Shown piece by piece: positions 3,838 through 23,581 of a stretch of DNA of 32,000 nucleotides. A program made the translations under genes and the position numbers. The notes below the pieces were generated by a model. The model was not told the origin of the DNA. It made no database searches and saw only the letters and a list, made by a program, of their open reading frames with translations. This DNA comes from Candidatus Methanoperedens sp. (lineage in GTDB: Archaea; Halobacteriota; Methanosarcinia; Methanosarcinales; Methanoperedenaceae), in NCBI GenBank assembly GCA_049303315.1, contig JBAQMZ010000029.1:105703-137702 (forward strand), written 5' to 3'. The stretch's first letter is position 1. Every line of letters begins with the position of its first letter.

Positions 3838-4588
3838 ATGATAGATGATATGCTGGGATGGAGGACAGGAATAAGGCAGAGCAAAAAGGTATTGCTTACT
3901 TTCCTGATACTTTGATGAACCCAATGATATTCAAAAATTTTAGACGGGTTCATCAAACCTGTGCCCCTGATGGTGATAAATGTCGGGCAGAACACAATGG
4001 CATTCCCTTTTCTCGGCACTCTTTACATAGGTTTGCTCTATCCACTGCTGATAATCCTGCTCGGCATAATAGGCGCCTCCAACGCCTTTAACATGCTGGC
4101 TGGCTACAATGGACTTGAAGCCGGGGGTAGTGATACTTTCCACGCTCGGCTTAATAGCCTACAGCACTGGCAATACGGTAGCTGTAGTAATTGCAGTTAC
4201 AACGATTTCTGCCCTGATAGCCTTACTTTATTTCAACAAATACCCTGCTAAAGTGTTCCCCGGTGATACGTTAACGTATCCTGTCGGTGCAATAGTGGCG
4301 ATAGTTGCAATCCTTGGTAACATGGAAAAGTCTGCTGTTGTGCTTTTTTCTCTGTATTATATCGAGTTCCTGCTAAAGGCAAGAGGAAAACTAAGACCCG
4401 AATGGACAGCCAGGTTATTAGACGATGGCTCGCTTGCAGTCAGGGATAAAGTTTACAGCATCCCGCACATCGCCATTCTACTTTTAAGGAAAATAAAAGG
4501 GAAGGCTTATGAATATGAGGTTGTGATGGTCGTGCTGCTATTGCAGGTAATTATTGCGATATATACGCTGTATTCATTTTATGGGTAG
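3838..4588 (+). pseudogene. Decayed AglH/WecA/MraY-family (GT4 polyprenyl-phosphate HexNAc-1-P transferase) gene: N-terminally truncated, with in-frame stops and a frameshift
   Basis: The reading starts at MIDDMLGWRTGIRQSKK (the DD motif normally sits about 90 aa into these proteins), only 6 nt after the upstream stop. Three in-frame stops occur at 3913, 3916 and 3925. The family motif NAFNMLAGYNGLEAG is in frame 1, then the frame switches at the G5 run 4123-4127. The remainder (..YFNKYPAKVFPGDTLTYPVGA..) is read in frame 2 up to 4588. Confidence 0.7.
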
Positions 4589-4624
4589 AATGAAGGTTAA
4601 AAGTGCAGCTTATGCTTCTTGCAT

Positions 4625-4695
4625 CGGTGGCTTATCGGCGCCAGGATTTTAATATTTACAATTAGATAATAGTTCCTGTGAATCCTGTCGAAAAA
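4625..4695 (+). repeat. Repeat-module copy A (uninterrupted): cggtggcttatcggcgccaggattttaatatttacaattagataatagttcctgtgaatcctgtcgaaaaa
   Basis: Aligns along its length with 8571-8595 joined to 12633-12710. Contains the GGCGCC palindrome, a TATA-like tttaatattta and two tcctgt 9-mers. Confidence 0.8.
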
Positions 4696-4740
4696 GGGAA
4701 ATATCTGCGTTCATCTGCGGTTCCTTTTTTCACTGTCGAT

Positions 4741-4794
4741 GGTTGCACGGGTAACCTACAGGCGCCGAGATTTTAATATTTACGATGCGATAAT
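4741..4794 (+). repeat. Repeat-module copy B, truncated at 4794/4795 against an epimerase gene stub
   Basis: ggttgcacgggtaacctacaggcgccgagattttaatatttacgatgcgataat matches copies A, D and E. Similarity ends exactly where the minus-strand stub MRILITGGAGF begins. Confidence 0.7.
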
Positions 4795-4827
4795 AAATCC
4801 CGCGCCGCCTGTTATAAGTATTCTCAT
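4780..4827 (-). pseudogene. 15-codon stub of an NAD-dependent epimerase gene (MRILITGGAGFIIAS*)
   Basis: The ATG lies 5 nt downstream of the uxs stop. The Rossmann start ITGGAGF is followed by divergence into repeat copy B and an immediate stop. Confidence 0.55.
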
Positions 4828-4831
4828 TTAT

Positions 4832-5761
4832 TTATTCTAAAATACCTTTAAAGTACTTTATCGTTTCTTTTATCCCCTGCTCAAGTGAAACTTCCGGTTC
4901 CCACTCCAACAGTTCTCGCGCCTTCCCAATATCAGGTCTTCTCTGCTTTGGGTCATCAACAGGCAGCTCCTTAAAAGTAATTTTTGAATCGCTGCCTGTT
5001 ATCCTGATAATGAGTTTTGCAAATTCCAGTATCGAATACTCCTCTGGATTCCCGATATTCACAGGCTGAGTATAATCCGACATCATCAACCGGTAAATCC
5101 CTTCAACTTCATCACTCACGTAGCAGAAACTTCTGGTCTGAGAACCGTCGCCGTACACAGTCAGGTCTTCTCCGCGCAAAGCCTGCCCGATGAAATTCGG
5201 GACAACCCGCCCGTCATTCAGGCGCATCCTTGGACCATAGGTGTTAAATATCCTCACAATCCGCGTATTCACGCCATGATACCTGTGATATGCCATAGTT
5301 ATAGCCTCAGCAAACCGCTTTGCCTCATCATATACACCCCTGGGACCAATCGGGTTCACGTTTCCCCAATACTCCTCGGTCTGGGGATTCACAAGCGGGT
5401 CGCCGTAAACCTCGGATGTCGAAGACAGCAAAAAGCGTGCACCCTTCTCCTTGGCGAGACCGAGCATATTATGCGTACCAAGTGCCCCGACCTTCAATGT
5501 CTGGATTGGAAGTTCAAGGTAATCAATCGGGCTTGCAGGACTTGCAAGATGGAACAGGAAGTCGATATCGTCATCAATGTAAAGTGGCTTTGTCACATCA
5601 TGTTTTATGTAGCTGAATTTGTTATTGTCTATATGGGCAATATTTCTTGCATCTCCTGTTATGAGATTGTCCACACAAATTACCTCATATCCCTTCTCGA
5701 GCAGTAAATCGCAAAGATGCGAGCCAATAAATCCTGCACCGCCTGTTGCCATTGTTTTCAT
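4832..5761 (-). CDS. uxs: UDP-glucuronate decarboxylase (UDP-xylose synthase)
   Basis: [25 protein letters not shown] and the long block [48 protein letters not shown] are all characteristic of UXS enzymes. Confidence 0.85.
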
Positions 5762-8274: not shown

Positions 8275-8350
8275 AAATACGTCCTTTTTCCTTCTTTTAA
8301 ACTATACGGATATATTAGCTGTTAGATAATTGTACTCGACAGTCAAATAA

Positions 8351-8443
8351 TCATTCCGTTAAACTAATAAAACCTGACGAAATAACTCTATCGTCCATCA
8401 GTGCTCCAACAAATCCCGCGCCGCCAGTCACCATGCATTTCAT
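8351..8443 (-). pseudogene. 30-codon stub of an NAD-dependent epimerase gene (MKCMVTGGAGFVGALMDDRVISSGFISLTE*)
   Basis: A Rossmann N-terminus only, lying upstream of ugd on the same strand. Below the ORF-track length cutoff. Confidence 0.45.
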
Positions 8444-8570
8444 GCCTGTAAAATTGAACTGACATTACTTAAATCCTCTCCCAGAGCTCAAAGCCCTGCG
8501 CCAGCCTCTGTACGACCACAGCACTGCCAGGGTGGTTTTGCTTGCATGTGTCGGGAATAGTAGAAATGAT

Positions 8571-8595
8571 GTTGCTTCGGTTAGCATATCGGCGC
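8571..8595 (+). repeat. Repeat-module copy C, left half only (gttgcttcggttagcatatcggcgc), cut off by the insertion
   Basis: Matches the 5' part of copies E, A and B. The expected continuation (c-ggnnntttaatattta...) is found only at 12649 onward. Confidence 0.75.
8580..8595 (+). repeat. Left copy of the 16-bp direct repeat (putative target-site duplication) gttagcatatcggcgc
   Basis: Identical 16-mer at 12633-12648. The boundary is ambiguous by 1 nt, so the duplication is 15-16 bp. Confidence 0.75.
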
Positions 8596-8596
8596 A

Positions 8597-8642
8597 CGCC
8601 CCCCGCTCTGCATTTTCATGGTTTTTATTTATCTCTTTGTCC
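8597..8642 (+). repeat. Left terminal inverted repeat
   Basis: The tip cgccccccgc (8597-8606) is the exact reverse complement of 12624-12633. The block 8621-8642 (gtttttatttatctctttgtcc) matches the reverse complement of 12588-12609 at 17/22, at the same 23-nt offset from the tip. Confidence 0.7.
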
Positions 8643-8674
8643 TCTCTCGGGTTCACAATCATTAATATATCCTT

Positions 8675-8696
8675 GTTTTTATTTATACTTTTGTAC
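8675..8696 (+). repeat. Second subterminal copy of the 22-bp arm motif (gtttttatttatacttttgtac)
   Basis: Matches 8621-8642 at 18/22 and the reverse complement of 12588-12609 at 19/22. Confidence 0.55.
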
Positions 8697-8720
8697 TTTC
8701 GTTTTCTTCTTATATCTTTT

Positions 8721-8790
8721 TCACACCTCCCCCCACCACAGCACGTGACCACACCCTCACACACACAGCACACGCACACAGAGAGAAAAA
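8721..8790 (+). other. Strand-asymmetric C/A-rich, nearly T-free low-complexity tract in the left arm
   Basis: tcacacctccccccaccacagcacgtgaccacaccctcacacacacagcacacgcacacagagagaaaaa, with a central cacgtg palindrome. ORFs called across it translate to low-complexity Cys/Val/Gly or His/Thr/Pro strings. Confidence 0.5.
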
Positions 8791-8944
8791 AGTAAAACCG
8801 CTATCAAGCGGCGCTTTTATAAACACTATTCTTATAAAAAATGTAAATAAAATTCTCTCGATAACGATTATTTTAAATTTTATTAATATTATAAATAATT
8901 TACGCAAAAATCGCTATTGGTAAACACTTTTTATCTTAGGAAAA

Positions 8945-8981
8945 GCTTATATATAATAACAACTATATTACATAATCGTTA
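8945..8981 (+). promoter_or_regulatory. Candidate promoter/operator of the plus-strand cargo operon
   Basis: A TATA-like cttatatataat at about 8947-8958 is followed by taatcgtta (8973-8981). That 9-mer is the inverted partner of taacgatta at 8862-8870 and is related to the ttaacgatt tandem in the right arm. Confidence 0.3.
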
Positions 8982-9080
8982 CGTGTTGTCTGGTTGCAGG
9001 GAATCAAGTCTTTTTTCCCTGTAACTATTCCTGATTATAGGGAATATAGGCAGGTAACAGGAAAAGACCAGGAAGATAAC

Positions 9081-9620
9081 ATGTTGAATGAAATAAACAA
9101 TCCACTTAGTGGCGACACTATAAATCAAATAGTAGAAGATATTATAGGGGTTAATAAGGACAGCACAAACCGAATAGGACAACAACATTTAAAAGATATT
9201 ATACTTTGTGTTCATTCAAGAGCGCCTATAAAAAAAAGCACTCTTGTATCTATTTTGAGGGTAAAAATTCTAATCGGGGAAAGGTATGTAAACGAATATT
9301 TAGATGGTTTAGAAGCCTTAGAAATCATAAAACTTGATAAAAATATGATTCTTTGGAATTTTAACGATACTATAAAACCCGCAGAAATCCCCACAAAACA
9401 ACCATTAAATAATCATTTTAAACCCGATAAGAATGAGTTTAAAACGATAATAAAAGATGCTTCAAAGCAAATATATGACCAACGGGAAGAATTAAAAATT
9501 AAGGCAGATTCAGCCGAAGGAATCCCCTTTGAAGAAATGCTAAAACTCACGCCTTTTTCTGAATTGGGGATGAATCAGGAACAGTTTGAAACGTGGGTAT
9601 TAACACAAATTGAGGGTTAA
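9081..9620 (+). CDS. Winged-helix DNA-binding protein (putative element regulator)
   Basis: The segment KKSTLVSILRVKILIGERYVNEYLDGLEALEIIKLDKNMILWN reads as helix-turn-helix plus wing. ATG 9081 is preferred; the track starts at TTG 8994 in the same frame, so the start is uncertain. Confidence 0.55.
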   Translation: MLNEINNPLSGDTINQIVEDIIGVNKDSTNRIGQQHLKDIILCVHSRAPIKKSTLVSILRVKILIGERYVNEYLDGLEALEIIKLDKNMILWNFNDTIKPAEIPTKQPLNNHFKPDKNEFKTIIKDASKQIYDQREELKIKADSAEGIPFEEMLKLTPFSELGMNQEQFETWVLTQIEG

Positions 9621-9621
9621 T

Positions 9622-9846
9622 ATGCTATCTTTGAAAATTCGTTATCGGAAGAATGCAAAACCGACAGTTATTAATCTTGATGTTTCAGGTAATACAACTA
9701 TCGAAGAAATTGCAGAACAGGCAGCAAACAAGCTCGCAAAAGGGTTTAAAAGATATGCAACAGGTATTTCAGAAAGAAGCCTTGAAAAATACCGCTTTGC
9801 ACAATATATGATGTTGAAATTAAAGTTATCGGAGATGATTAAATAA
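9622..9846 (+). CDS. Hypothetical small protein (74 aa)
   Basis: ATG at 9622 preceded by gaggg (9612-9616). Its stop overlaps the next start (TAATG). Confidence 0.45.
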   Translation: MLSLKIRYRKNAKPTVINLDVSGNTTIEEIAEQAANKLAKGFKRYATGISERSLEKYRFAQYMMLKLKLSEMIK

Positions 9847-10121
9847 TGGCAAGAGATGTTGAAATTGAATTGGATTACGACAGTCAAACGGTAACTATTG
9901 TAAATCCTGATGGGGTTTATAGTTACGATATGACCGATGATATACTGAAATTAGCGAATGACTTGCTTGAAGGCGGTGCGGGATACAGTGTTTATTCGCA
10001 GGAAGACACATGGACGGAACAAATCAGCGATAAAATAGAGAAGCGCAGACAACTAAAAGAACAGTTGGCAGAGCTTGATGATGAAATCAGAGAAATAAAA
10101 GAAAAACATAAAGGAGGATGA
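9846..10121 (+). CDS. Hypothetical small acidic protein with a charged helical C-terminal tail (91 aa)
   Basis: Coupled start and stop with its neighbours. The C-terminus KIEKRRQLKEQLAELDDEIREIKEKHK looks like a coiled coil. Confidence 0.5.
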   Translation: MARDVEIELDYDSQTVTIVNPDGVYSYDMTDDILKLANDLLEGGAGYSVYSQEDTWTEQISDKIEKRRQLKEQLAELDDEIREIKEKHKGG

Positions 10122-10125
10122 AATA

Positions 10126-10818
10126 ATGGCAAATGAAGAACTTAAAGACCTTGTAGAAACCGCAAACAGACAAGATATAAGATTCCTGTTTAATCGCTTT
10201 GACTGTAACAATTTAGAAAAAGCTTTCCGTGTGGCACACGAATTAAATCAGAAAGTGGATAAACCGATATGCAAAGGCTTTATTGAAAAGGATGGAAAGC
10301 TATTCAAACAGATGTCAAAAACTGTATGGCGTGTGGGTAGGAATTATGACCGTAACGTAGTTCTCGAAGTGGATAACCACGATTTAAATAACCTGCGAGA
10401 GCTATATAATTTCTATAAGTCACTTCTTGGACAGGATTTTAACGTATTCAAAACCTTACATGGTTTTCACGTAATCCAGAAAGTAGCGTACAAAACAAAT
10501 GATGAATGGCTCTATGCTAACAGTTTGTTATTGAATCCGTCTTTGAAGTTAGAGGATTTAGCAGATTACGTTGAAAAGATAAAGGCTTTCGATAACAGTA
10601 AACGCAACGATGATACCGTAAAAGATACTCATAAACTGTTGGGCACAAAAGAAGATTACATTAGAGACTTTAAGAAATCTGGATTATTTCAAGGTACTGG
10701 CGAGTTCGACCTTCTATATACTATCCGTGGAATATGTTTTAATAAGTACACATTGAGAATATCAAAGAAAACACCAACTGACAAATACGAACGGGTAGAC
10801 ATGGAGAAATTGACATGA
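10126..10818 (+). CDS. Hypothetical protein (230 aa) with weak archaeo-eukaryotic primase / prim-pol-like motifs
   Basis: aggagg-like RBS (ggaggatg) upstream. Candidate motifs are VVLEVDNHD (acidic metal-binding strand), KTLHGFHVI (compare sGxGxHhh) and NDEWLYANSLLLNPS (compare hD...hhhPPS). The assignment rests on motifs only. Confidence 0.5.
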   Translation: MANEELKDLVETANRQDIRFLFNRFDCNNLEKAFRVAHELNQKVDKPICKGFIEKDGKLFKQMSKTVWRVGRNYDRNVVLEVDNHDLNNLRELYNFYKSLLGQDFNVFKTLHGFHVIQKVAYKTNDEWLYANSLLLNPSLKLEDLADYVEKIKAFDNSKRNDDTVKDTHKLLGTKEDYIRDFKKSGLFQGTGEFDLLYTIRGICFNKYTLRISKKTPTDKYERVDMEKLT

Positions 10819-11111
10819 AAATCGATAAAATACCAATAGAGGAGGCGTATAACCTCATTTTACATCCGATACAGCACATAATATCCATAAATCCACGGAT
10901 AATAACCCGTATGGAGTTGATTCTATTACATGCAGTTAATCCGGTGCTGGCAGATAAGGTATTCCAAGAAGGTAACCTATCGGATGAAGTGCGAGAATCA
11001 CTTACACCAACACCAGAACAATACAAAGCGAGATTAGTTGAGCAATATAGAATATGTGAAACAAAATCACATAAAAAAGGTTGGAAGAAATTTAAAAAAG
11101 GATTAAAATGA
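10815..11111 (+). CDS. Hypothetical protein (98 aa) with a basic C-terminal tail
   Basis: ATGA overlap with the upstream stop. Tail sequence KSHKKGWKKFKKGLK. Confidence 0.45.
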   Translation: MKIDKIPIEEAYNLILHPIQHIISINPRIITRMELILLHAVNPVLADKVFQEGNLSDEVRESLTPTPEQYKARLVEQYRICETKSHKKGWKKFKKGLK

Positions 11112-11284
11112 AGATTAGAGACGTTATAAAAATCCAAAGAAAAGAAGCAGTAAAAACTAAAACAAGTATCCGCTTTGCGCTAAAAAGCGATACTGATAAA
11201 GGTTTTTATTGTAGATTATTTGATAATCAAGTTAAGTTTTGCAGTATAACTTTTTGTAATTATTTAACTTTGTGTGAAAGATGA
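11108..11284 (+). CDS. Possible 58-aa Cys-containing ORF (below the track cutoff)
   Basis: ATGA overlap with the upstream stop. Translation MKIRDVIKIQRKEAVKTKTSIRFALKSDTDKGFYCRLFDNQVKFCSITFCNYLTLCER* contains four Cys residues. Confidence 0.3.
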   Translation: MKIRDVIKIQRKEAVKTKTSIRFALKSDTDKGFYCRLFDNQVKFCSITFCNYLTLCER

Positions 11285-11292
11285 AATTTAAA

Positions 11293-12336
11293 CTATAACA
11301 TTTTTTCAATTTTCCGTATCAATGGAAGGCTTTTAAGCTCTAATGGGTTAAGTACAAACATAAACTCATTCAAAGCAATATCAAAAGCATTATCTTTGAA
11401 GGTCATGCTCATTTTATCTTTTGTAAAAGTGAAATCAGTTGGTTTTATTCTTAATCCTAAAATCATCTCTATAACCTGACTGTCAATCCATACCCTATAA
11501 GGCTCTATGAAATCATAAACAAGCATATTCCAGTAAGGTTTTTGTGCTTCATTCTGATGCATGAAGCCTATGGATAGCTCAAAACCACGTTTTAATAATA
11601 GTTCACTCATTCTTTGAGCTAACAAAGAATAACCTAAATTCAACATGGAGTTTATCGGGTCAACTGCATTTTTATTACCTGATACTTTCCCGTGCCTGCC
11701 TTTCCAATTCCATTCTTTACCAAACACCCAGTTTTTGAAATATAGATTTGCTGAAATGGCTTCTATTTGCATAATCTCTTTTATATCCAGTGCCTTGTTA
11801 AGTTTAGGGATATAATCTTTCATGCCTTGCGATTCCAGTTTTAACTTTATCAAATATTTAGTTATCTCCAATGCTTTGCCGTTAATCCTTGATTCCACTT
11901 GTTTTATAATCAATGATGGTCTTTTAAAATTGAACGGTAAAAAGCTTGCATCAACTTTACCTTTGCTATCAATCCAGTATATTGCTATCGAATTAGCTTT
12001 AGCAAAATCAATAAAAGCAGTAGAAATATAACCTTTTCCATTAGGCGTTATGATAATTCTTTCAGTATTATGAAGGTCTATCGGATAATCCTTTTTAACC
12101 TCTATTTTTTTGTTGTGCTCTCTAAGGAATTTTAGATATAATTTACCATGATGATTTATTCTCTTTTCAGGTAATCCGGCTTTCTTATCCCGTTCTAATT
12201 GCTGGCTCATTAATTCGTCAATTTCACTATCGGTATAAGGTCTTTCTGTTGTTTCAATATGTGTAAATACGGGTTTAAGATTCTGCTTTCTTAGAGCAAA
12301 TAGACTATTTATCAATAATGACGATTCATTATTCAT
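11293..12336 (-). CDS. cas1: Cas1-family integrase homolog, solo (casposase-like)
   Basis: The Cas1 architecture is readable by eye. N-terminal beta domain: ERIIITPNGKGYISTAFIDFAKANSIAIYWIDSKGKVDASFLP. Glutamate motif: QIEAISANLYFKNW. Also NAVDPINSMLNLGYSLLAQ, histidine motif LSIGFMHQ and acidic motif LVYDFIEPYRVWID. No cas2, cas4 or CRISPR array in the window. Confidence 0.8.
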   Translation of the reverse strand: MNNESSLLINSLFALRKQNLKPVFTHIETTERPYTDSEIDELMSQQLERDKKAGLPEKRINHHGKLYLKFLREHNKKIEVKKDYPIDLHNTERIIITPNGKGYISTAFIDFAKANSIAIYWIDSKGKVDASFLPFNFKRPSLIIKQVESRINGKALEITKYLIKLKLESQGMKDYIPKLNKALDIKEIMQIEAISANLYFKNWVFGKEWNWKGRHGKVSGNKNAVDPINSMLNLGYSLLAQRMSELLLKRGFELSIGFMHQNEAQKPYWNMLVYDFIEPYRVWIDSQVIEMILGLRIKPTDFTFTKDKMSMTFKDNAFDIALNEFMFVLNPLELKSLPLIRKIEKML

Positions 12337-12409
12337 ACGAGTTCACCAATTTATATAAAGCTTCAATCCAATTTATAACTTGCCTATCCCTTAATTACGA
12401 GTTCACCAA
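12336..12409 (-). promoter_or_regulatory. cas1 promoter region: palindromic TATA box flanked by two 14-bp direct repeats
   Basis: tttatataaa at 12350-12359 has its upstream edge 23 nt from the A of the ATG, which implies a leaderless or near-leaderless mRNA. tacgagttcaccaa occurs at 12336-12349 (overlapping the start codon) and again at 12396-12409. Confidence 0.45.
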
Positions 12410-12519
12410 ACTGTTTTTTTGGGGTAGGTACTTTACTTTTCTTAGACTGCACCGCTTGTTAGTGATTATTTTGTGTGAATACGGGATACTCCGATTTTAG
12501 GGAAAGAGTATGAAGGTAT

Positions 12520-12595
12520 AATTGTACAAATAGGACAATAATTGTTAACGATTCTTAACGATTGTCAACCAGAACGAGAATCTAATTGCACAAAT
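12520..12595 (+). repeat. Right-arm subterminal repeats
   Basis: aattgtacaaat (12520-12531) and aattgcacaaat (12584-12595) match 11/12. They bracket a tandem ttaacgatt (12545-12553 and 12555-12563, 10-bp period). Confidence 0.6.
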
Positions 12596-12633
12596 GTATA
12601 AATAATAACATTAATATAAATAGGCGGGGGGCG
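12588..12633 (-). repeat. Right terminal inverted repeat
   Basis: The reverse complement reads cgccccccgc...gttattatttatacatttgtgc, pairing with 8597-8642. Confidence 0.7.
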
Positions 12634-12648
12634 TTAGCATATCGGCGC
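12633..12648 (+). repeat. Right copy of the 16-bp direct repeat (putative target-site duplication)
   Basis: gttagcatatcggcgc, identical to 8580-8595. Confidence 0.75.
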
Positions 12649-12710
12649 CGGGAGTTTAATATTTATGATGTGATAATAGTTCCTGTCAGTCCTGTTAATC
12701 CTGTCAAAAA
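12633..12710 (+). repeat. Repeat-module copy D, right part, continuing copy C
   Basis: gttagcatatcggcgccgggagtttaatatttatgatgtgataatagttcctgtcagtcctgttaatcctgtcaaaaa aligns with copy A. It has three tcctgt 9-mers where A has two. Confidence 0.75.
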
Positions 12711-12724
12711 TTCATGACACGGGG

Positions 12725-12776
12725 GTTGCTTCGGGAGCATACTGGCGCCGCCAATTTAATATTCACGATGTAATAT
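12725..12776 (+). repeat. Repeat-module copy E
   Basis: gttgcttcgggagcatactggcgccgccaatttaatattcacgatgtaatat. Confidence 0.7.
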
Positions 12777-12960
12777 ATGTATCTTTCGCCCCCCCATCGA
12801 GCACTTGCCTCTCCCACCCTCCCTGCGCTAAAACCCCACCTTTGCTTTGCACAATAGCAAAAGACTGGGATGATGGCAAGAAAGAGTGGGTATTTAAATA
12901 ATTCATGTCACCTGAGTTTATGTTGCATGAGATGGCAACGCTTCAACCGAGAGTAAACCC

Positions 12961-12986
12961 CCGCCTTCAGGCGGTGCCTCTTTTTC
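12961..12986 (+). terminator. Hairpin plus oligo-T, terminator-like
   Basis: ccgcc-ttca-ggcgg (12961-12974) is followed by tgcctcttttt. A second hairpin, ctgggc-gaa-gcccag, lies at 12997-13011. Confidence 0.3.
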
Positions 12987-13085
12987 CTCGTCGGGTCTGG
13001 GCGAAGCCCAGCGCAATGGCAAGTTTTAATATCAGATTAATGGGATTGATAGTATAATGAAGTCAAGTACACATAAGTGGTGAAA

Positions 13086-15161
13086 ATGAATAACAAAAAA
13101 GTTAATGCCTTTATCGCATTTTCCGTCCTTTTCAGCTACGGTATAACACTCTTAATGATAAAATACCCTGCTTCCTACACAAGCGGCTCTCCTGTCGCTT
13201 TATTCTGGTCGGGAGTACCTATAGTCAGCATTGGAAAAAGCTTGTTTTTCCTTTTATTTGCCCTTATCGTTTCATACGTATTATCAAACATGAAACTGGA
13301 ATTTGATGAACGATACGCTCCGATTTATTTGTTTATAGCAGCATTTACTATCTCACTGTTCCTCTGGGGTATGCCGGAAGTTAACAACGATTATCGCGTA
13401 TATTTCGATTATGCGAAGACCGTTGAGGTCAACGGTTTGCAAAGTATCAACCAAGTAGTGCAATCGGGTTCAACATATTTCGTTATGCCGGTTTTGGATG
13501 GATACTTATTTAAGTTATTCGGGGAAGGAAGATTAATTATACAGATTCTCCGCACAACGCTCTTCGCTTTAACTGCCGTGGTAACATATTATATCGGCAA
13601 GGAGTTATGGGATAAAAGAGTGGGGCTTATTGCCGGAATACTGCTCTTATCATTTCCATATTTCCTTTCGATGAGCCATTTAATGCTCATAGATGTGCCC
13701 CTTGCATTTTTTGTATCACTCTCGGTTTTTGCTCTCATTAAGGCTCGGGACAGCAGGAAATGGTTTGTTATCCTTATACCTGTGCTCCTGTTAACGTTAT
13801 TTACGAAAAAGACCGGAATAGTATATCTTGGATTTTTGCTGCCAGTAGTGCTTCTGGCGTTATTTATTAAATATAAATGGAAGATTCTTAAAATAGCGGC
13901 TCCGGTTTTGGCAATAATAAGTTTTATCGCCGTGATAGAATTTTCAGATTTTTTAAAATGGACAGTGGAGTCGCTGCTCCACGGCCAGTCAGTAGCCTAT
14001 ATGTCTCACGGCATGTATTGGATTAATCCCCAGTATTATTTGAAATCCCTGCCCATTGTTATCGGTCCGATTGTGGCCATATTGGCTTTCGGCTCTATCG
14101 TACTCCTTCTCAGGAGGAGAGACCATCGCTTATTGATTCCTGTGGCATGGATGATTATCCCTATCTTTATAATGGTCAATCCGGCTTTCAGGCATCTGAT
14201 TCCTGCCTATCCTGCATATGCCCTTGCTGCTGCTGTTGTACTTATTGAAGTGGAGAAGGGAATTAGCATAGGTAAAAAATCTTTTAAGCTGGATGGACAA
14301 AACTGGAAATTCCTTGTTTCTTCTACCATACTCCTTTCAATCTTCATGGCATTGCTTGTATTTCCCCAGATAGAGGCTACTCATATGCAGGTTAATATTA
14401 AGGAGGCTGCGGAGTACACAAACGAGTTAGGAGTCAGTAATATCTCGCTCGTCACAATTGGTGATTCAGGATTTAATTGGTATGGGCAGGGAGGGGACTT
14501 CAGGAATATGTACGATTATTATTCTACCGCTAAGGTTGACTATTTCCCGGCGCAGCAATTCCAGGATACAAATCCAGACTCAATAGTAGTCGTCAGCACA
14601 GTCATTAACCCGGATATTCCTGCGCCCTTGAATAATACCATACATAACTACTATCTGTCCAAAATCTTCAGCAAGGGTGATTACGAATATTTCGCCCCTG
14701 CAATTTTCTCGGTATATCTGTCGCAGATCGAGTACCATTCAAGGTATCCAGAGTTCCTGCAGAATATCGGCAAAAAAATGAAGGTAGAGGTATTCGAGGT
14801 TGCAAACCCAAATGCAGGCATTTTGAATTTTGTTACCTGGACGCCTTCGGACAGGAAAATATTGGATAAAAACGTAAGCGTAACCTGGACGATCAAGGCA
14901 GAAGAAGAGCCTCTGGAAGTTGGCTTTTATTATCGTAAACAAGACGGCTTCTTCGCTGATAAAGAGGGAGAAGAGAAAATACAGAAAAGAAGCACAGTAG
15001 AAATAACAAGGGTTATCGAGCCCGCCCAGACCATGGATACGTATATAAGGGCTGTACCTATTGAAGTCGGCGGCAGGAAAATGAAGATAATAAACGTTAC
15101 CTTCAGATCAGAGTTTTACAACATTTCAATTACGAGGAACATGGAAGGATTTAGTTTTTAA
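13086..15161 (+). CDS. Polytopic membrane protein, putative GT-C fold glycosyltransferase (ArnT/PMT family-39-like) with a C-terminal soluble domain
   Basis: More than 10 hydrophobic segments over the first 430 aa or so, an acidic first loop (EVNNDYRVYFDYAK), then a roughly 250-aa hydrophilic domain. Glycan-cluster context. ATG 13086 is preferred over GTG 13077. Confidence 0.45.
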   Translation: MNNKKVNAFIAFSVLFSYGITLLMIKYPASYTSGSPVALFWSGVPIVSIGKSLFFLLFALIVSYVLSNMKLEFDERYAPIYLFIAAFTISLFLWGMPEVNNDYRVYFDYAKTVEVNGLQSINQVVQSGSTYFVMPVLDGYLFKLFGEGRLIIQILRTTLFALTAVVTYYIGKELWDKRVGLIAGILLLSFPYFLSMSHLMLIDVPLAFFVSLSVFALIKARDSRKWFVILIPVLLLTLFTKKTGIVYLGFLLPVVLLALFIKYKWKILKIAAPVLAIISFIAVIEFSDFLKWTVESLLHGQSVAYMSHGMYWINPQYYLKSLPIVIGPIVAILAFGSIVLLLRRRDHRLLIPVAWMIIPIFIMVNPAFRHLIPAYPAYALAAAVVLIEVEKGISIGKKSFKLDGQNWKFLVSSTILLSIFMALLVFPQIEATHMQVNIKEAAEYTNELGVSNISLVTIGDSGFNWYGQGGDFRNMYDYYSTAKVDYFPAQQFQDTNPDSIVVVSTVINPDIPAPLNNTIHNYYLSKIFSKGDYEYFAPAIFSVYLSQIEYHSRYPEFLQNIGKKMKVEVFEVANPNAGILNFVTWTPSDRKILDKNVSVTWTIKAEEEPLEVGFYYRKQDGFFADKEGEEKIQKRSTVEITRVIEPAQTMDTYIRAVPIEVGGRKMKIINVTFRSEFYNISITRNMEGFSF

Positions 15162-15281
15162 AAATACTGTATTCAGCGTCCGGTTAGCCATTGGTGTAAC
15201 ATAGAGATATTCAAAACCAGGAAAATATTATGATATTGATTTTTTTCACATTTGCATTATGAGATTGTGCAGAGGGGTAGT

Positions 15282-16631
15282 ATGAACTACATTAAACAGC
15301 CTGATGAAATAAAAATAATGTTTATCAATCCAGATTATATAAGCGGATTCAACTCGTATAAAAAGAATTCAATACTTAATCACGGTCTTCTTCAGATTGC
15401 TACATGTGCACAAAAAGCCGGATTTGATGTTACTTTTGTAGACACCAGAATGTTGAAGAACTGGAAAGATTTAGAAAGCACAATCAGCAGAGCACATCCA
15501 GACGTAGTAGCAACCGGTGGTATGAGCGTGAACTTTGGCTGGGCGCTAAAATGCATAGACATTGCAAAAAAAATCGATCCGGCTATTATAACTGTTATAG
15601 GGGGAGTTCATGCATCAATACGTCCTGACGAGGCTCTCTCTAAGGATGAAATTGACCACATAATAACAGGAGAAGGTGAAATCTCATTCATAGGATTGAT
15701 CCAAAACCTGTTTATTCACAGGGTAAAACAGCCAAGATTAATAAACGGGCAGAAACCAGAATTAGATGAGTTGCCTTTTATTAACCGTTCATTTTTGCCA
15801 TACTTTGAACTTAACAACCCAATATGGTTTGGCAAAAAGCCCTGGATAACAATTATAGCAGGAAGAGGTTGTCCTTATAAATGTAAATTCTGCCAGCCGT
15901 CTGAAAATATTTTATTCGGTACAGGCGTTCGAATCAGAAGTCCTGAAAATGTTATTGCTGAGGTCATCGAACTTCAGGAAAAATATTCATTCGATTATGT
16001 GCATTTCCATGATGACTGTCCTACATTTAGCAAAAAATGGATTGAAGATTTTTGTGAAAAATACGTTGATGCGGGATTTACCCAGAACTTTGCTGTAGCA
16101 GCGCGTGCCGATATATTATGTAAAAATGAAGATATGATATCTATCTTAGCTCGCGCAGGTTGCGATACGGTTTCTATTGGATTTGAAAGCGGCAGTCAGA
16201 GGATATTGGATTTTTTAGGCAAAGGTACTACGGTTGAACAAAATATCAAATCCGCAGAATTATGCCATAAGTATGGAATTAAGATTGTGGCTAACTATAT
16301 GTTTGGCGTACCGATAGAGACCCTGGATGATGTCAGAGCTACTCTGGAGATGCTGGACAAAATAAAACCAGATTATCGAAGCCCTGCATACTTTACACCA
16401 TATCCAGGTACATACCTGTACGATTATTGTGCAGAAAAGAATATTTCACTATTGCAAGAGTATAAAGATTTTAATAGATATCCGGATTCACACAAAATTA
16501 AAGGCATTGATTATAAATCAATTGAAAAACTCAGGATGGAGTACGGCGATTTAGGAAAAAATCGTTATATTCTACATTCCATAGTAAAAGAGTATCAACA
16601 TATTAAACGTGGTATATTAAATCAAGGATAA
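15282..16631 (+). CDS. B12-binding-domain radical SAM enzyme
   Basis: CxxxCxxC cluster motif GRGCPYKCKFC, preceded by a roughly 150-aa Rossmann-like N-terminal domain. ATG 15282 follows gagggg (15272-15277); the track starts at TTG 15252. Confidence 0.75.
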   Translation: MNYIKQPDEIKIMFINPDYISGFNSYKKNSILNHGLLQIATCAQKAGFDVTFVDTRMLKNWKDLESTISRAHPDVVATGGMSVNFGWALKCIDIAKKIDPAIITVIGGVHASIRPDEALSKDEIDHIITGEGEISFIGLIQNLFIHRVKQPRLINGQKPELDELPFINRSFLPYFELNNPIWFGKKPWITIIAGRGCPYKCKFCQPSENILFGTGVRIRSPENVIAEVIELQEKYSFDYVHFHDDCPTFSKKWIEDFCEKYVDAGFTQNFAVAARADILCKNEDMISILARAGCDTVSIGFESGSQRILDFLGKGTTVEQNIKSAELCHKYGIKIVANYMFGVPIETLDDVRATLEMLDKIKPDYRSPAYFTPYPGTYLYDYCAEKNISLLQEYKDFNRYPDSHKIKGIDYKSIEKLRMEYGDLGKNRYILHSIVKEYQHIKRGILNQG

Positions 16632-16637
16632 AGCGCT

Positions 16638-18149
16638 TCAAATTTTGATCGGGAGGTATTCTTTAATCAGTTCGGCGTCATAAGTATCAAGGCAGTTCAT
16701 TTTTAGGAGTGTGACTAAATACAAAGCACAGAAGAGAACTGTCTCAAATATAAGAGATATGAGGCTGGTCTTAAAAAAATAAGCTGCTGGATATAAAAGC
16801 AGCAAAGCAACGGCGCTCGCTCCTGTTGCCGGGAAAAGAACCTTCTGGAAAAAGACAGCATTCGCAATTCCCATGTGTTTGTGAAGAACCAGAATAAAGT
16901 AAATTGAAGCTATTATCATTGCAATAGATGTGCCCAGTGCTGCGCCAAGGTAGCCAATTTTTATTATCAATAATACACTCAGGATCAGGTTCAATACCGT
17001 GGCTATTATGGAACTTTTCATGACATAATCAGGTTTTCCCAAGCCAGTGGCAATCTGGCTGCCTGAGGAAGTCATAATATTTGCAAAATAGCCCAGCAAG
17101 AGTACCTGAAGTGTAACCACAGAGAGTTCATATCCTTCACCTAGCCACACCCTGATAATACCTGGAGCCAGGAAAAAAGCAAAAAAAAGGAGAGGAATGC
17201 TCACCAGTGAGAGGTATTTGGATGAGCGCATGTAGAGCTCCCTTAAGGAGTTCTCATTCCCGGCAGCTTTCATCTCCGATGCGGCAGGAAGGATAGCGCT
17301 TACAATGGCTAAGGGAACCATTCGCACAGTCAATGCCACAGTAGCCGCAACTTCATAGAAAGCGACGAAGCTCAACTGGAGAAAATAAGTGATGAAAATT
17401 TTGTCGGTCTGGAAGTGCATCATATCGCCTATGCGGCTGAAGTGTATCTTTGTACCGAAAGTCAGGAGTTCTTTTAGTATTTTTGCATCAAGAAACCTGC
17501 GACCGATAGCAAGTCGGGGGAAGACCCTTTTTGAGGCTATAGCATAGGCAAGTGAAGTTATGATAGCGATTATTCCTGTGTTCAATATAAGACCTGCAAG
17601 CCCGAAACCTCCGATAAGGAACAAAACTATTCCAATGCCCTCAAGAGTAGTGACAACGATTTTGATCTTGTTAGTCACGTCCATCTTCTGAAGACCGATG
17701 ATAACAGAGCCAAAAACGCTCATGGTATTTGAGAATGCAAAGATAAGGACTCCCCCTGTAAGGACAAAATCCGCTTCATCGATAAGGGTAGGGGGTATAT
17801 GAAGAATATTCTCAACTGCCGATTTTATTAAAAAAATTGCCGCAATACAGGAGACCAGCCCTGCGGCAGCATAAAATACCAGTGCAGAATTCACTACTTT
17901 ATTTATTGAATCGAATTCTTTTTTTGCGTAATACGAAGAGACATATTTCACTACCGATGTCCCGATACTAAAATCAAGAAGCGCAAAGTATCCGGTGAAC
18001 AGAAGCACAAGAGCCCATATCCCAAACCTTTCTGTCCCGATATGATTTATTATGAAAGGGGTTAAGAGGATCTTTATTAAAAGACTCCACGACCCTCCCA
18101 ATGTATTAAAAATAGTATTTCTTATTATTTTTGTTGAGATATTGCCCAT
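16638..18149 (-). CDS. Polysaccharide/oligosaccharide flippase (MOP superfamily, Wzx-like)
   Basis: 503 aa, hydrophobic throughout with about 12-14 predicted helices, in a glycan-cluster context. Confidence 0.7.
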   Translation of the reverse strand: MGNISTKIIRNTIFNTLGGSWSLLIKILLTPFIINHIGTERFGIWALVLLFTGYFALLDFSIGTSVVKYVSSYYAKKEFDSINKVVNSALVFYAAAGLVSCIAAIFLIKSAVENILHIPPTLIDEADFVLTGGVLIFAFSNTMSVFGSVIIGLQKMDVTNKIKIVVTTLEGIGIVLFLIGGFGLAGLILNTGIIAIITSLAYAIASKRVFPRLAIGRRFLDAKILKELLTFGTKIHFSRIGDMMHFQTDKIFITYFLQLSFVAFYEVAATVALTVRMVPLAIVSAILPAASEMKAAGNENSLRELYMRSSKYLSLVSIPLLFFAFFLAPGIIRVWLGEGYELSVVTLQVLLLGYFANIMTSSGSQIATGLGKPDYVMKSSIIATVLNLILSVLLIIKIGYLGAALGTSIAMIIASIYFILVLHKHMGIANAVFFQKVLFPATGASAVALLLLYPAAYFFKTSLISLIFETVLFCALYLVTLLKMNCLDTYDAELIKEYLPIKI

Positions 18150-18270
18150 AAAATATCAGTAATTCATAACATGTTTTTTTTCTTAATCGTACTTATTCTA
18201 AAAATATTGTAAGTGTCTGATTTATTGATACAATTATTGATACAATTGAAATTAACCAATTCAACATTCT

Positions 18271-18984
18271 TCAAATTCGTTGTTTAATTTTCCGAACCAA
18301 TTCACTTGCCCTGAATAATGATTCAAATGTCCCGGCATCGCTCCAGTATCCTGAAAGCACAGAATAACTCATCTCACCTCTGCGAATATATTCATTATTT
18401 ACATCTGTTATCTCAAGTTCTCCTCTACCTGAAGGCTTCAGGGTATGTATTATATCGAATACCTGGGAATCGTAAACATACAATCCTGTAACAGCAAGAT
18501 TCGATTTTGGTACAGTTGGTTTTTCTTCAATCGAAATAATGCGGCTCCCCTGTCTCTCAGCCACTCCAAATCTATTAGCATCCGGCACTTCCTTTAAGAA
18601 TATCATTGCGCCAGATTTAAAAGATGCAACTTCTTTGCTCACGTTATCTTGAAAGATATTATCGCCAAGGATTACCGTGACAGGTTCTTTATCTGCAAAA
18701 TTCCTGGCAAGGCTCAGAGCCTCGGCAATACCGCCGGCTTTTTCCTGAATCTCATAGGTAAGATGCACTCCAAACTCTGCACCTGAACCCAAAAGTTCAA
18801 GAAAATGCCCGGCATGACCGCGACCGGAAACAATCATGATTTCTTCAATATCTGCATCGATTAGTGTCTGCAGTGGATAGTATATCATGGGTTTATCAAA
18901 GACCGGAAGTAAGTGTTTATTAGTAATTTTGGTCAAAGGATACAGGCGAGAGCCTGTTCCGCCTGCAAGTATTATACCCTTCAT
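18271..18984 (-). CDS. rmlA: Glucose-1-phosphate thymidylyltransferase (short form)
   Basis: MKGIILAGGTGSRLYPLT..KHLLPV signature. Adjacent to rmlD, rmlB and rmlC. Confidence 0.85.
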   Translation of the reverse strand: MKGIILAGGTGSRLYPLTKITNKHLLPVFDKPMIYYPLQTLIDADIEEIMIVSGRGHAGHFLELLGSGAEFGVHLTYEIQEKAGGIAEALSLARNFADKEPVTVILGDNIFQDNVSKEVASFKSGAMIFLKEVPDANRFGVAERQGSRIISIEEKPTVPKSNLAVTGLYVYDSQVFDIIHTLKPSGRGELEITDVNNEYIRRGEMSYSVLSGYWSDAGTFESLFRASELVRKIKQRI

Positions 18985-19823
18985 AAATACCCCATCATTG
19001 TTTTCCGCTTATTTAAATATTCAGCAAGTGCATCTTTCCAGTGCCGCATCAGGGTTGTTTTAGTGTTAACCAGAACTGAATATGTTGGGCGCTTAGCTTT
19101 TCTAACAAACTCTTTACTCTTGCATGGTGTTACATTATCTATAATAGCAGATGCAAATTCGTACCATGAACATACCCCCTCATTAGTGATATGATAGATA
19201 CCAGGTCCAAGTCCAACGATTTCGACCGTTTTCCTGGCAAGATCAAAAGCATAGGTTGGTTTACCAAACTGGTCATTTACAACTCTCACAGTTTCCATCC
19301 GCTCTTTTAATTTAAGCATCGTATCAACAAAATTCACACCGTACGCTCCGAATAGCCAGGAGGTCCGGATAATCCTGTAGTTATTCGTATTCTGAGTAAT
19401 ATTTTTCTCGCCCATGAGCTTAGAGCTACCATAGACATTGATAGGATTTGGCATGTCTGATTCTATGTATTCTTTTTTAGAGCCATCGAATACATAATCC
19501 GAACTATAATGAATTAATTTTGCACCAGAATTAGAGCATCCCTCGGCTATGTAGCCAGGTGCAATGCCGTTTACACCAAACGCCAGTTCCTGATTTTCCT
19601 CACAATCATCAACAGAAGTATAAGCTGCAGCATTTATCACAACATCTGGTTTTTCCATCCCGATTGTTTTGAGGACCATTTTTCTATTTCGTATATCAAT
19701 ATCACTATGCTTGAGCTTAATTGCATCAGGAAATACATTACACAATTCTCTGCCGAGCATGCCGCCAGCGCCAAATATTAGGATTTTAATTTTTCCCACC
19801 ACCACCGATTCTCGATATACCAA
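18981..19823 (-). CDS. rmlD: dTDP-4-dehydrorhamnose reductase
   Basis: ILIFGAGGMLGREL and the SSDYVFDG...YGSSK motifs. An ATG at 19823 would overlap rmlB by 46 nt, so a GTG start near 19796-19802 is equally plausible. Confidence 0.8.
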   Translation of the reverse strand: MVYRESVVVGKIKILIFGAGGMLGRELCNVFPDAIKLKHSDIDIRNRKMVLKTIGMEKPDVVINAAAYTSVDDCEENQELAFGVNGIAPGYIAEGCSNSGAKLIHYSSDYVFDGSKKEYIESDMPNPINVYGSSKLMGEKNITQNTNNYRIIRTSWLFGAYGVNFVDTMLKLKERMETVRVVNDQFGKPTYAFDLARKTVEIVGLGPGIYHITNEGVCSWYEFASAIIDNVTPCKSKEFVRKAKRPTYSVLVNTKTTLMRHWKDALAEYLNKRKTMMGYL

Positions 19824-20761
19824 TTAACAGTATATTCAAGCGCATAATCAAAATTGTGTTCTGGCCCCCATCCAAGAGACTTTAATTTTGAACAATCAAG
19901 CGAATACCGCAAATCATGACCCGGACGGTCTTTTACATAATCAACCATAGATTCATCCTTTCCAAGAAGTTCTAGAATCTTTTTTGTGATTTCAAGATTT
20001 GTTTTTTCAGCGCCCCCGCCTATATTGTAAATTTCGCCAATACAGCCGTTGTGGAGGATAAAATCAATCGCTTTGCAGTGGTCAAGCACATATATCCAGT
20101 CGCGCACATTCTTGCCGGTTCCATAAACAGGAACCTTCTTATTCTCCAAAATATTTGTTATAAACAAAGGAATTAGCTTCTCAGGGTACTGGTAAGGTCC
20201 GAAGTTATTGGTGCATCGGGTTATAATAACTGGTAATTTATGTGTTATATAATACGATTGTGCAAGTAGGTCAGAACCTGCTTTACTTGAAGAATAAGGG
20301 CTGGATGGGGTAAGAATATCAGTTTCTTTGAAAGACCCTTCAATTCTGCTACCGTAAACCTCATCGGTTGATATATGGATAAACTTTTTTACATTGTGTT
20401 TCAATGCGCTATCAAGAAGGGTAGATGTACCAAGAACATTGGTTTTTACAAAAAGAGAAGCATCTTCTATCGAACGATCAACATGGCTCTCTGCTGCAAA
20501 ATGTACTACATAATCGACCTTTTGCATAAGCTTATTTACAACATTTTTGTCACAGATATCGCCACGGACAAATGAATAACGTATGTTATTTTCAATATCC
20601 TTCAGGTTATCAGGATTTCCTGCGTAGGTCTGTTTATCGAGATTGATAATCATGGAATCCGGATATTTCTCCAGCATATGCCGGATAAAGTTGCTACCGA
20701 TAAATCCCAATCCACCGGTTACCAGTAGATTCAACGTTTTAACCTCGTTTGATTTAACCAT
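19778..20761 (-). CDS. rmlB: dTDP-glucose 4,6-dehydratase
   Basis: VTGGLGFIGSNF, ISTDEVYG and YSSSKAGSD (YxxxK). Confidence 0.9.
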   Translation of the reverse strand: MVKSNEVKTLNLLVTGGLGFIGSNFIRHMLEKYPDSMIINLDKQTYAGNPDNLKDIENNIRYSFVRGDICDKNVVNKLMQKVDYVVHFAAESHVDRSIEDASLFVKTNVLGTSTLLDSALKHNVKKFIHISTDEVYGSRIEGSFKETDILTPSSPYSSSKAGSDLLAQSYYITHKLPVIITRCTNNFGPYQYPEKLIPLFITNILENKKVPVYGTGKNVRDWIYVLDHCKAIDFILHNGCIGEIYNIGGGAEKTNLEITKKILELLGKDESMVDYVKDRPGHDLRYSLDCSKLKSLGWGPEHNFDYALEYTVNWYIENRWWWEKLKS

Positions 20762-21227
20762 GTTTTAAACCGGGGGCAAGTCCCCAATCGTATGGAATTT
20801 CCTTAGTATCGGGAGGCAGGCGGTATTCATCAGGTTCTGCATAATTATACGGAAGTGTAGGAATACTTAAAAAATAAGCTGTTTCTGTACCAATCGCTTT
20901 GAAACCATGATATACCCCAGGAGGAACACTTACCAAAATCGGATTTTTTTCACCCACAAATAATTCCAATATTGTTTTATATGTTGGTGAATCTTCACGT
21001 GCATCATACAAAACTACTTTCATCATTCCATGAATGCATGTGAAATTATCTGTTTGCATTTTGTGGTAATGCCAGCCCTTAACGACCCCGGGATATGCAG
21101 TAGTTATATAGACCTGACCAAACTTGCTGAATATTTCATCATCACATCGCAAAATTTCTGTAAGCCAACCCCGTTCATCTGCGACAACTTTCAGGGTTTT
21201 GATTACTACACCATCTATATTTTCCAT
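20754..21227 (-). CDS. rmlC: dTDP-4-dehydrorhamnose 3,5-epimerase-like cupin (short RmlC type)
   Basis: DERGWLTE, GWHYH and PPGVYHGF motifs. Overlaps the rmlB start by 8 nt. Confidence 0.75.
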   Translation of the reverse strand: MENIDGVVIKTLKVVADERGWLTEILRCDDEIFSKFGQVYITTAYPGVVKGWHYHKMQTDNFTCIHGMMKVVLYDAREDSPTYKTILELFVGEKNPILVSVPPGVYHGFKAIGTETAYFLSIPTLPYNYAEPDEYRLPPDTKEIPYDWGLAPGLKHG

Positions 21228-21289
21228 ACTTCTACCTATTAATTTTAAGACGTACGTATTTTAATATATATCTACATATTTAACTTTGT

Positions 21290-23365: not shown

Positions 23366-23581
23366 AGCATACTTCTCCTGAATTCTGATGGAATAATATC
23401 TTTAACTATATTTAAATGCCTAACATCGATTGTCTCAAACAAATGGTTTATTAGAGTAATGACCAATGTTGTTCAAGAAGATGACAGTGGTAAAATCGAT
23501 ACCTAACCGCCCCGGGCGGCGCTTCCGCGCGGATGTTGTTTGCAGTAAAAGGTTTAGTACTATCAGGGAAAAGATTAGTCC

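Follow-up and report, generated by a model that had tools for sequence, protein, structure and literature searches.

The 32,000-nucleotide stretch of Candidatus Methanoperedens sp. DNA analysed here (contig JBAQMZ010000029.1; hereafter the window) carries four copies of a short module built around a GGCGCC palindrome and a TATA-like box, one of them split by a Cas1-encoding element. The module is a reiterated DNA site family of Ca. Methanoperedens-type genomes and keeps one orientation per locus. We consider it probable (at roughly 0.6) that it is a reiterated casposon target, the landing site of a lineage of small (~4 kb) Cas1 elements without PolB, inside an integration and recombination hotspot. 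An original prediction for this DNA had listed five occurrences of the module core; pattern and profile matches reduce these to four modules, with the split copy supplying two of the five pieces.

The module and the element that splits it

The consensus of the module consists of ggtTGcttcGG, about 9 variable nucleotides, GGCGCC, N5, TTTAATATTTA, N2 and AtgtgATAata. The pattern GGCGCC-N5-TTTAATATTYAYRAT has four matches in the window, against 0.02 expected, and none of 100 shuffled sequences reached that number; exact matches to GGCGCCNNNNNTTTAATATTYAYRAT start at 4637, 4761, 12644 and 12744. All of these lie on the + strand. A 72-nt profile made from family members was also used. The features at and around the split copy are as follows (L-numbers, L001-L060, are labels of loci from other sequences that were compared with the window; TRF, Tandem Repeats Finder).

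4617-4675, + strand: module A, unoccupied copy of the putative target; profile E=3e-16, exact pattern match at 4637
4674-4691, + strand: two TCCTGTNNN 9-mers after module A, read from the sequence and aligned with the repeats after D; below the TRF threshold
4736-4799, + strand: module B, unoccupied copy of the putative target; profile E=3e-17, exact pattern match at 4761
8560-8595, + strand: module C, left half only of the split copy; profile E=4e-5
8580-8595, + strand: left copy of the target-site duplication, GTTAGCATATCGGCGC; 100% direct repeat
8596-12632, no strand assigned: casposon-like element of 4,037 bp, with ends (CA)CGCCCCCCGC ... GCGGGGGGCG read at the junctions; no PolB
10126-10818, + strand: 230-residue protein, conserved partner of the Cas1 lineage; 30-71% identity to Cas1 neighbours in L046, L047, L048, L053 and L058
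11293-12336, - strand: Cas1, casposase-like, 347 residues; PF01867 E=4.6e-34
12633-12648, + strand: right copy of the target-site duplication, GTTAGCATATCGGCGC; 100% direct repeat
12635-12683, + strand: module D, right half of the occupied copy; profile positions 24-72, E=2.7e-15, pattern match at 12644
12681-12707, + strand: three TCCTGTNNN 9-mers; TRF period 9, 3.0 copies, 83% matches
12716-12781, + strand: module E, unoccupied copy of the putative target; profile E=2.2e-17, exact pattern match at 12744

Module D contains GGCGCC, the TATA-like box and GATAATAG. Several relations between the copies that the original prediction had drawn hold on closer analysis: A and D are 84.7% identical across 59 nt and are followed by two and three 9-mers, respectively (family members have 2-3); the modules form pairs, spaced by 124 nt and 100 nt, next to epimerase gene stubs which are genuine N-termini of SDR proteins; and both the T-run after A (4725-4730) and the hairpin with T-run after E (12961-12986) are present in the sequence. 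The stop codon of a glycosyltransferase-4 (GT4) gene lies 29 nt upstream of module A, and the right end of module B runs into an SDR gene stub. The additional blocks said to be shared between 8475-8546 and 12808-12851 proved to be merely exact 9-mers (BLAST E ~7-9), which is not above chance, and a profile of the 225-nt long unit described below has no match within 12790-12870. A further segment at 8312-8333, atatattagctgttagataattgt, shares 77% identity with A across 22 nt, which alone is not significant; it is possibly the degenerate right half of a module, lying between the start of a UDP-glucose dehydrogenase gene and an SDR stub.

The GTTAGCATATCGGCGC duplication flanking the element measures 16 bp at maximum, or ~14 bp if CA is counted as the element end, and the terminal inverted repeats (TIRs), CGCCCCCCGC and GCGGGGGGCG, are 10-12 bp long, at 8595-8606 and 12624-12633. 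With the element and one duplicate removed, the rebuilt pre-insertion site shares 88.7% identity across 257 nt with L039 1932-2185, an uninterrupted copy (paralogous or orthologous) in another Methanoperedens metagenome-assembled genome, which holds the duplicated segment once, within L039 2040-2195. The flanking duplication, together with the single segment in this uninterrupted copy, gives the insertion a casposon-type signature.

The element has the Cas1, the TIRs, the target-site duplication and the site specificity of casposons, and it lacks their PolB. Its Cas1 is accompanied by neither a repeat array nor cas2 in the window. An NCBI protein from a metagenome-assembled genome, encoded on a 233-kb contig, has 100% identity to this Cas1; an exact-protein look-up gave no record of it or of the protein P0001. 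The best PDB match of this Cas1 is 6OPM, the casposase of Methanosarcina mazei (E=5.9e-13, catalytic domain only); the two are distant relatives only, and the window protein is without the C-terminal helix-turn-helix (HTH) of the M. mazei enzyme. When the open reading frames (ORFs) of the element were compared with Pfam and PHROGs only Cas1 was recognised; the four others had no match, and no PolB was found. The same small architecture, comprising Cas1, a convergent protein of 210-270 residues and a few tiny ORFs, is seen in the relatives L046, L047, L057 and L058. The family of the 230-residue partner comprises 73 clusters in a representative library, with invariant D83, D195, R211 and K215 and the motifs LxIDIDxxD, KTxxGYxLI, GxFDILF and TLRISKK; its fold is predicted with confidence (AlphaFold predicted local distance difference test score, pLDDT, 89.6) and has no significant PDB, BFVD, Pfam or PDB-sequence match. 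A likeness of the partner to archaeo-eukaryotic primases and the LigD polymerase domain is a lead at most: these were enriched among the best, non-significant matches of a model with pLDDT 74.5, a few of them persist at 89.6, and the weak enrichment is statistically unsupported.

Two further sequence features of these elements were observed. Upstream of cas1 (window 12337-12440, minus strand) lies an operator-like inverted repeat, AAAGTACCTAYCCC ... GGGATAGGCAA, which is kept also in L001, L005-L009, L012 and L022 and is accompanied by a repeated TTGGTGAA(T)C motif, the second copy of which overlaps the start codon. CA-rich, microsatellite-like subterminal tracts occur at window 8720-8780, at L001 8760-8810 and at the ends of L057. 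A literature search found no report of casposons in Methanoperedens, and nothing specific on integrons there either.

Junctions of related elements and conservation of the module

Three further elements (in L001-L003, L057 and L047), with related Cas1 proteins (63-72% identity) and different terminal repeats, are joined to the module right after GGCG. In L001, ...ggttgcatgggggcatatcggcg (the left side ending in gcatatcggcg) meets CACCCCACACCC; L002 and L003, which have the same Cas1 as L001, carry the other module half on the Cas1 side, with GGGTGTGGGGTG joined to ggcatatcggcgccggggaattaatatt, a junction that can also be written as GGGTGTGGGGTG followed by ggcatatcggcgcc..ttaatatt. The element in L057 is complete, measures 4.0 kb, has (CA)n ends and lies between ...gcggttgcctgggggGACATATCGGCG and GACATATCGGCGCCggagatttaatattt; its duplication is (GG)ACATATCGGCG and its TIRs, (CA)n-TAAATAACTATTA, are 26 nt long, beginning with (CA)7. 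The target duplications in L057 and L001/L002 are of 12-14 bp. In L047 ...tcctgcccGGCGC is joined to AGGGCAGGC within a divergent variant of the module, an intact copy of which lies 1.1 kb upstream. The Cas1-proximal end is directed toward the TATA-like side in the window, L002/L003 and L057, and toward the other side in L001 and L047.

The best conserved parts of the module in 31 full copies are GGCGCC, TTTAATATTT and the TG..GG of GGTTGCTTCGG, and the least conserved positions lie inside the duplicated stretch. Homology within the family stops ~25-30 nt downstream of the TATA-like box, and a 60-nt core is the sole part common to all of the differing flanks. When one genome per prokaryotic species was scanned, 20 loci were obtained, 11 of them archaeal and mostly from Methanoperedens; the remainder is about the number of chance bacterial matches calculated from the specificity of the pattern (roughly 9). 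The profile gave 43 matches in 14 sequences, and at every multi-copy locus all copies are on one strand. Viral contigs that were searched contain neither the module nor relatives of the Cas1. The copies in the L035, L039 and L044 arrays are too divergent for TRF to be of use.

For the casposase of Aciduliprofundum boonei, a leader motif beside the duplicated segment is required, and the greater part of that segment is not needed (PMC6614799). The junctions at the same position, together with a pattern of conservation that matches these rules, lend good support to a role of the module as a target site. The idea that the module marks an insertion target, put forward in the original prediction together with a check on whether other copies of the Cas1 element sit at the same position after ggcgc, is upheld by the 14-16 bp duplication at the split copy, by the uninterrupted copy in L039 and by the three other Cas1 elements (L001-L003, L057, L047).

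The following mechanism can be outlined. The casposase would cut the two strands ~14 nt apart, once just after GGTTGCTTCGG and once inside the GGCGCC palindrome, and the poorly conserved stretch (G)TTAGCATATCGGCG(C) would be duplicated because it lies between the two cuts. C and D in the window would then together represent an occupied site, and A, B and E unoccupied paralogous sites. By analogy with the leader motif of A. boonei (PMC6614799), the casposase would read the conserved flanks; the AT-rich TATA-like box lies 7 nt from the cut and may contribute, for instance through protein-induced bending. The hotspot presumably grew by recombination at or near the module, the native role of which may be that of a promoter-like element or an att-like site.

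A number of points weigh against this reading. The junctions are just four or five independent ones, and one of them (L047) lies in a divergent module; the opposite orientations of L001 and L002/L003 may have arisen by misassembly via the terminal repeats. Most other relatives of the Cas1 that were compared (L005-L025, L048-L056, L059-L060) show no module, their contigs being too short or the Cas1 lying in other contexts, and a scan of metagenomes found nothing with a single Cas1 query and, with an alignment as the query, 21 loci of which none has a module junction. The part assigned to the casposase at the module is deduced from comparison of sequences, the number of sites given for the source genome is that within the window, and the hotspot could stem entirely from processes unrelated to casposons.

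Larger repeats, gene cassettes and competing accounts of the module

The modules lie within, or beside, larger repeated blocks, of which those in the window are given below.

4695-4735, + strand: spacer block between A and B, atctgcgttcatctgcggtt followed by a T-run; 95-97% identity to L042 1650-1686 and L044 4878-4908
4792-4827, - strand: SDR/epimerase N-terminal stub of 12 codons, MRILITGGAGFI; identified from the repeat family and by translation
8351-8443, - strand: SDR stub of 30 codons, MKCMVTGGAGFVGALM...; identified by translation, inside the 225-nt long unit
8402-8595, + strand: long repeat unit comprising the stub, a GC-rich leader and the left half of C; long-unit profile E=1.6e-63, ending at the insertion point
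12782-12872, + strand: C-rich extension of E-type modules, kept in other genomes

The A-B spacer block is found also in L035 and L039. The block formed by D, E and the extension (window 12640-12872 and 12638-12873) is 84-86% identical to L031 3538-3771 and L035 855-1094, and L029 is similar to it. Ten more copies of the 225-nt long unit (window 8402-8595 plus D) occur in four Methanoperedens contigs (L036, L039, L042 and L044), and these units always hold, on the opposite strand, the start codon and 12-37 codons of an SDR gene; a stub of the MKCMVTGGAGFVGALM type recurs in every one of them. Since all long units carry an SDR start, the stub at 8351-8443 is a component of the repeat rather than the wreck of a local gene. 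The stub at 4792-4827 directly follows the stop of an intact epimerase gene (4832-5761). The last 160-220 nt of the GT4 gene are duplicated along with A/D-type modules in L031, L033 and L035, where the GT4-end and module layout of window A is also seen. The window GT4 gene is itself split into overlapping ORFs (3961-4251 and 4109-4588), and is probably frameshifted relative to the intact gene for a 266-residue protein in L031. One long unit of L044 (~2335-2380) is interrupted by 46 nt with perfectly inverted ends, TTGATAAACCC ... GGGTTTATCAA, which may be a very small hairpin or an insert resembling a miniature inverted-repeat transposable element (MITE).

In related loci, toxin-antitoxin cassettes lie between the modules (PIN, HicAB, UPF0175/DUF3368, TumE, AbiEii and MNT). 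L026 has four modules ~1 kb apart, separated by PIN_2, HicAB, PIN and PIN pairs; other loci hold UPF0175/DUF3368 (L031), MNT (L032), PIN_3 (L033), AbiEii (L035), TumE and VapBC (L039) or several cassettes (L047). The layout at L026 700-4700, at L047 2700-7460, and in L039 and L044 is integron-like, in that the toxin-antitoxin families vary and their direction alternates, with modules of the same orientation between them. In the window, B and C bracket a three-gene sugar-nucleotide operon, and D and E lie at the edge of a ~10-kb glycan island (12700-23540) which is missing from the syntenic L042 genome (L042 1-2650). The island encodes a PMT-like transferase, a B12-radical SAM protein, a flippase, rmlABCD, GT2 and GT1; in L042 its place is filled by a GlmU-like gene, a long unit and a VapBC cassette, with synteny resuming at the Nop5 gene (window 23541). 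A near-perfect TATA box, TATTTAAATA, with a leader, a GC hairpin and a T-run (window 12894-12986), precedes the PMT-like gene; this block occurs also at L029 1643-1730, ahead of a GT4 gene, and at L033 7606-7795, as a second portable leader/promoter block. Homology breaks recur at GGCGCC (L039 2280, L042 1725, L044 1696/1483), and the relatedness of left and right module halves is uncorrelated (gapped Mantel r=0.11, p ~0.1). The larger repeat blocks, the cassettes, the glycan island, the recurrent breaks and the uncoupled halves together point to an integration and recombination hotspot around the module.

The modules could primarily be archaeal promoters, with a B recognition element (BRE) and TATA box and an upstream operator (the CGGCGCCG palindrome and GGTTGCTTCGG), that drive short non-coding transcripts or leaders; the casposon would then prefer promoter DNA, so that this account is compatible with a target-site role. 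We regard it as a possible, if somewhat unlikely, primary function. TTTAATATT resembles a TATA box and is preceded by a purine-rich stretch, homology ends ~25-30 nt past the box, where transcription would be expected to start, conserved downstream blocks finish in T-runs (4695-4735, and the hairpin with T-run at 12961-12986), and in L026 two modules stand at a suitable distance ahead of + strand toxin-antitoxin operons. However, array orientation is fixed whatever the direction of neighbouring genes, many copies abut convergent gene 3' ends (L028, L036, L044, modules 1 and 3 of L026, and window B), and the unrelated toxin-antitoxin families would not share one operator. The fixed orientation and the many copies that face gene 3' ends suggest that transcription would be only part of the picture. 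Nor do the modules have the marks of structured RNA, a small-RNA unit having been among the original suggestions: there is no stable fold, no covariation and no Rfam match, either at gathering thresholds or at E<=1. RNAalifold gave -2.4 kcal/mol for the module, with 0/6 pairs compensatory, and 0/20 compensatory pairs for the leader of the long unit, where the sequences are too similar for a decisive test.

Two further coding or RNA-gene origins were rejected. ARAGORN finds no tRNA, nor can the reverse strand be read as the 5' half of a tRNA; as for coding on the reverse strand, a conserved TAA is present within the TATA-like box, but no consistent ORF runs across the copies.

That cassettes are bracketed by modules invites comparison with att-type sites of conservative site-specific recombination, or with an integron attC/pdif-like platform that moves toxin-antitoxin and glycan cassettes and that the casposon uses opportunistically. 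Same-orientation arrays with 1-2 kb between modules are found in L026 (four modules, one toxin-antitoxin pair per interval), L032, L039, L044 and L047; the VapBC cassette of L039 has a left half ending at GGCGCC as one border and a new left half together with a full module as the other; modules and gene 3' ends have been duplicated jointly, as would be expected of attL/attR pairs; and the two module halves are uncoupled. We nonetheless judge such a system unlikely, as no tyrosine or serine recombinase and no integron integrase was found in the scanned ORFs of the window and loci (partial contigs), and breakpoints do not always fall at GGCGCC: an acylphosphatase gene follows GATAA, and in modules 1 and 3 of L026 homology crosses the core. 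An attC-like hairpin was also looked for and dismissed; single-stranded DNA folds of eight copies are at the level of shuffled sequences (z -0.77 to +1.13), with no common hairpin.

Alternatively, the copies might be by-products of segmental duplication of gene ends (the SDR 5' region and the GT4 3' region) in a rearranging glycan locus, with their use by the casposon incidental. The SDR start in the 225-nt unit, with its 12-37 codons, the GT4 3' fragments that accompany modules in L031, L033 and L035, and the similarity of B to A/D, which extends into the stub, all fit this account, and the original prediction had named an origin as untranslated regions of duplicated genes as a possible refutation. 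Part of that objection stands, as the 225-nt variant is indeed an SDR gene start with its upstream region and GT4 3' ends do travel with modules; the target-site role is unaffected. Against gene-end duplication as the full explanation, which we hold to be distinctly unlikely, four elements that differ in their ends sit at one and the same nucleotide position, short modules without any gene fragment occur in unrelated contexts (malate dehydrogenase, ATPase_2/DUF234 and the toxin-antitoxin arrays of L026), and only the 60-nt core is common to all flanks.

It is highly improbable that some copies are footprints of casposon integration and excision cycles, or that the modules are MITE-like non-autonomous elements, both of which had been proposed. 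Tandem casposon arrays in Methanosarcina, where one site is used repeatedly (PMC4779613), and the half-modules beside foreign DNA in L042, L039 and L044 speak for such an origin. Integration, however, duplicates only ~14 bp, and the copies are paralogues of 60-225 nt and 70-85% identity within larger duplicated blocks, not 14-bp scars; tandem 14-mer duplicates occur in 0/31 copies. Scars are made unlikely also by the precision of excision of the M. mazei casposon, which was shown experimentally to restore a single clean site with no footprint (PMC10359463). The modules have neither TIRs nor target-site duplications of their own, their halves are not inverted copies of each other and their flanks differ without duplications; nothing in the element ends resembles the modules, and these ends have no similarity to the foreign DNA beside the half-modules in L044, L042 and L039.

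Relation to known integration sites

Published casposons are site-specific, with 14-bp target-site duplications of variable centre, insertion in both orientations and sites shared with other mobile elements (PMC4779613). The window site resembles the Methanosarcina casposon targets (IR1, IR2 and tRNA-Leu; Krupovic et al. 2016, PMC4779613; in vivo work on Gö1, PMC10359463) in specific, Cas1-mediated insertion, in a duplication of ~14 bp with a variable centre and conserved ends, in use in both orientations and in a site shared with other mobile DNA. Those sites are single loci, whereas here a 60-nt module is reiterated, several times per locus; the elements, too, differ from Methanosarcina casposons, being ~4 kb, PolB-less and equipped with a 347-residue Cas1 without the C-terminal HTH. 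Like the A. boonei target (PMC5137440, PMC6614799), the module has a conserved motif, GGTTGCTTCGG, immediately upstream of a mostly poorly conserved duplicated segment. Unlike that target, which is the 3' end of a tRNA gene, it involves no tRNA, and a second conserved block (GGCGCC and the AT-rich box) lies on the other side, as far as can be judged from the sequence.

As at the leader-repeat junction of CRISPR arrays (Cas1-Cas2), a Cas1-family integrase would here duplicate a segment beside a recognition motif, with an AT-rich element nearby; in contrast to CRISPR, it is the whole recognition module that is reiterated, not the duplicated segment, and there are no spacers, no Cas2 and no 14-mer array. 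The arrays recall integron attC arrays and Xer-dependent dif modules in that small cassettes, in many cases toxin-antitoxin pairs, lie between short sites of uniform orientation, yet they have no hairpin-forming imperfect palindrome, no recombinase was found, and breakpoints are not uniformly at one core. The TTTAATATT box, the purine-rich upstream stretch and the end of homology near the expected start are shared with archaeal BRE/TATA promoters, unlike the orientation of the module, which is independent of flanking genes. From its closest known counterparts, the single-locus sites of Methanosarcina and A. boonei, this target differs in being reiterated and arrayed, in its association with cassette-like gene blocks and in its use by a Cas1 lineage without PolB.

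The CRISPR spacer integrase is presumed to descend from casposases, whose target recognition is, to our knowledge, understood in only a few cases. With more than 30 natural variants of one target, occupied and empty, used by at least four elements with different ends, the module family amounts to a mutational series for the rules of recognition. The 4-kb PolB-less Cas1 elements strain the definition of casposons as 'self-synthesizing', and widen the casposon host range to the methane-oxidising Methanoperedens lineage. There is also a slim chance that the arrays are a gene-cassette platform run by a Cas1-family integrase, with the small PolB-less Cas1 elements as its autonomous members; if true, this would make them a functional analogue of integrons, or a still-existing stage halfway from a casposon target site to a CRISPR leader-repeat array, gathering toxin-antitoxin and surface-glycan cassettes. 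The module also directs attention to one specific sequence as a focus for the shuffling of toxin-antitoxin cassettes and surface-glycan genes in these uncultivated archaea.

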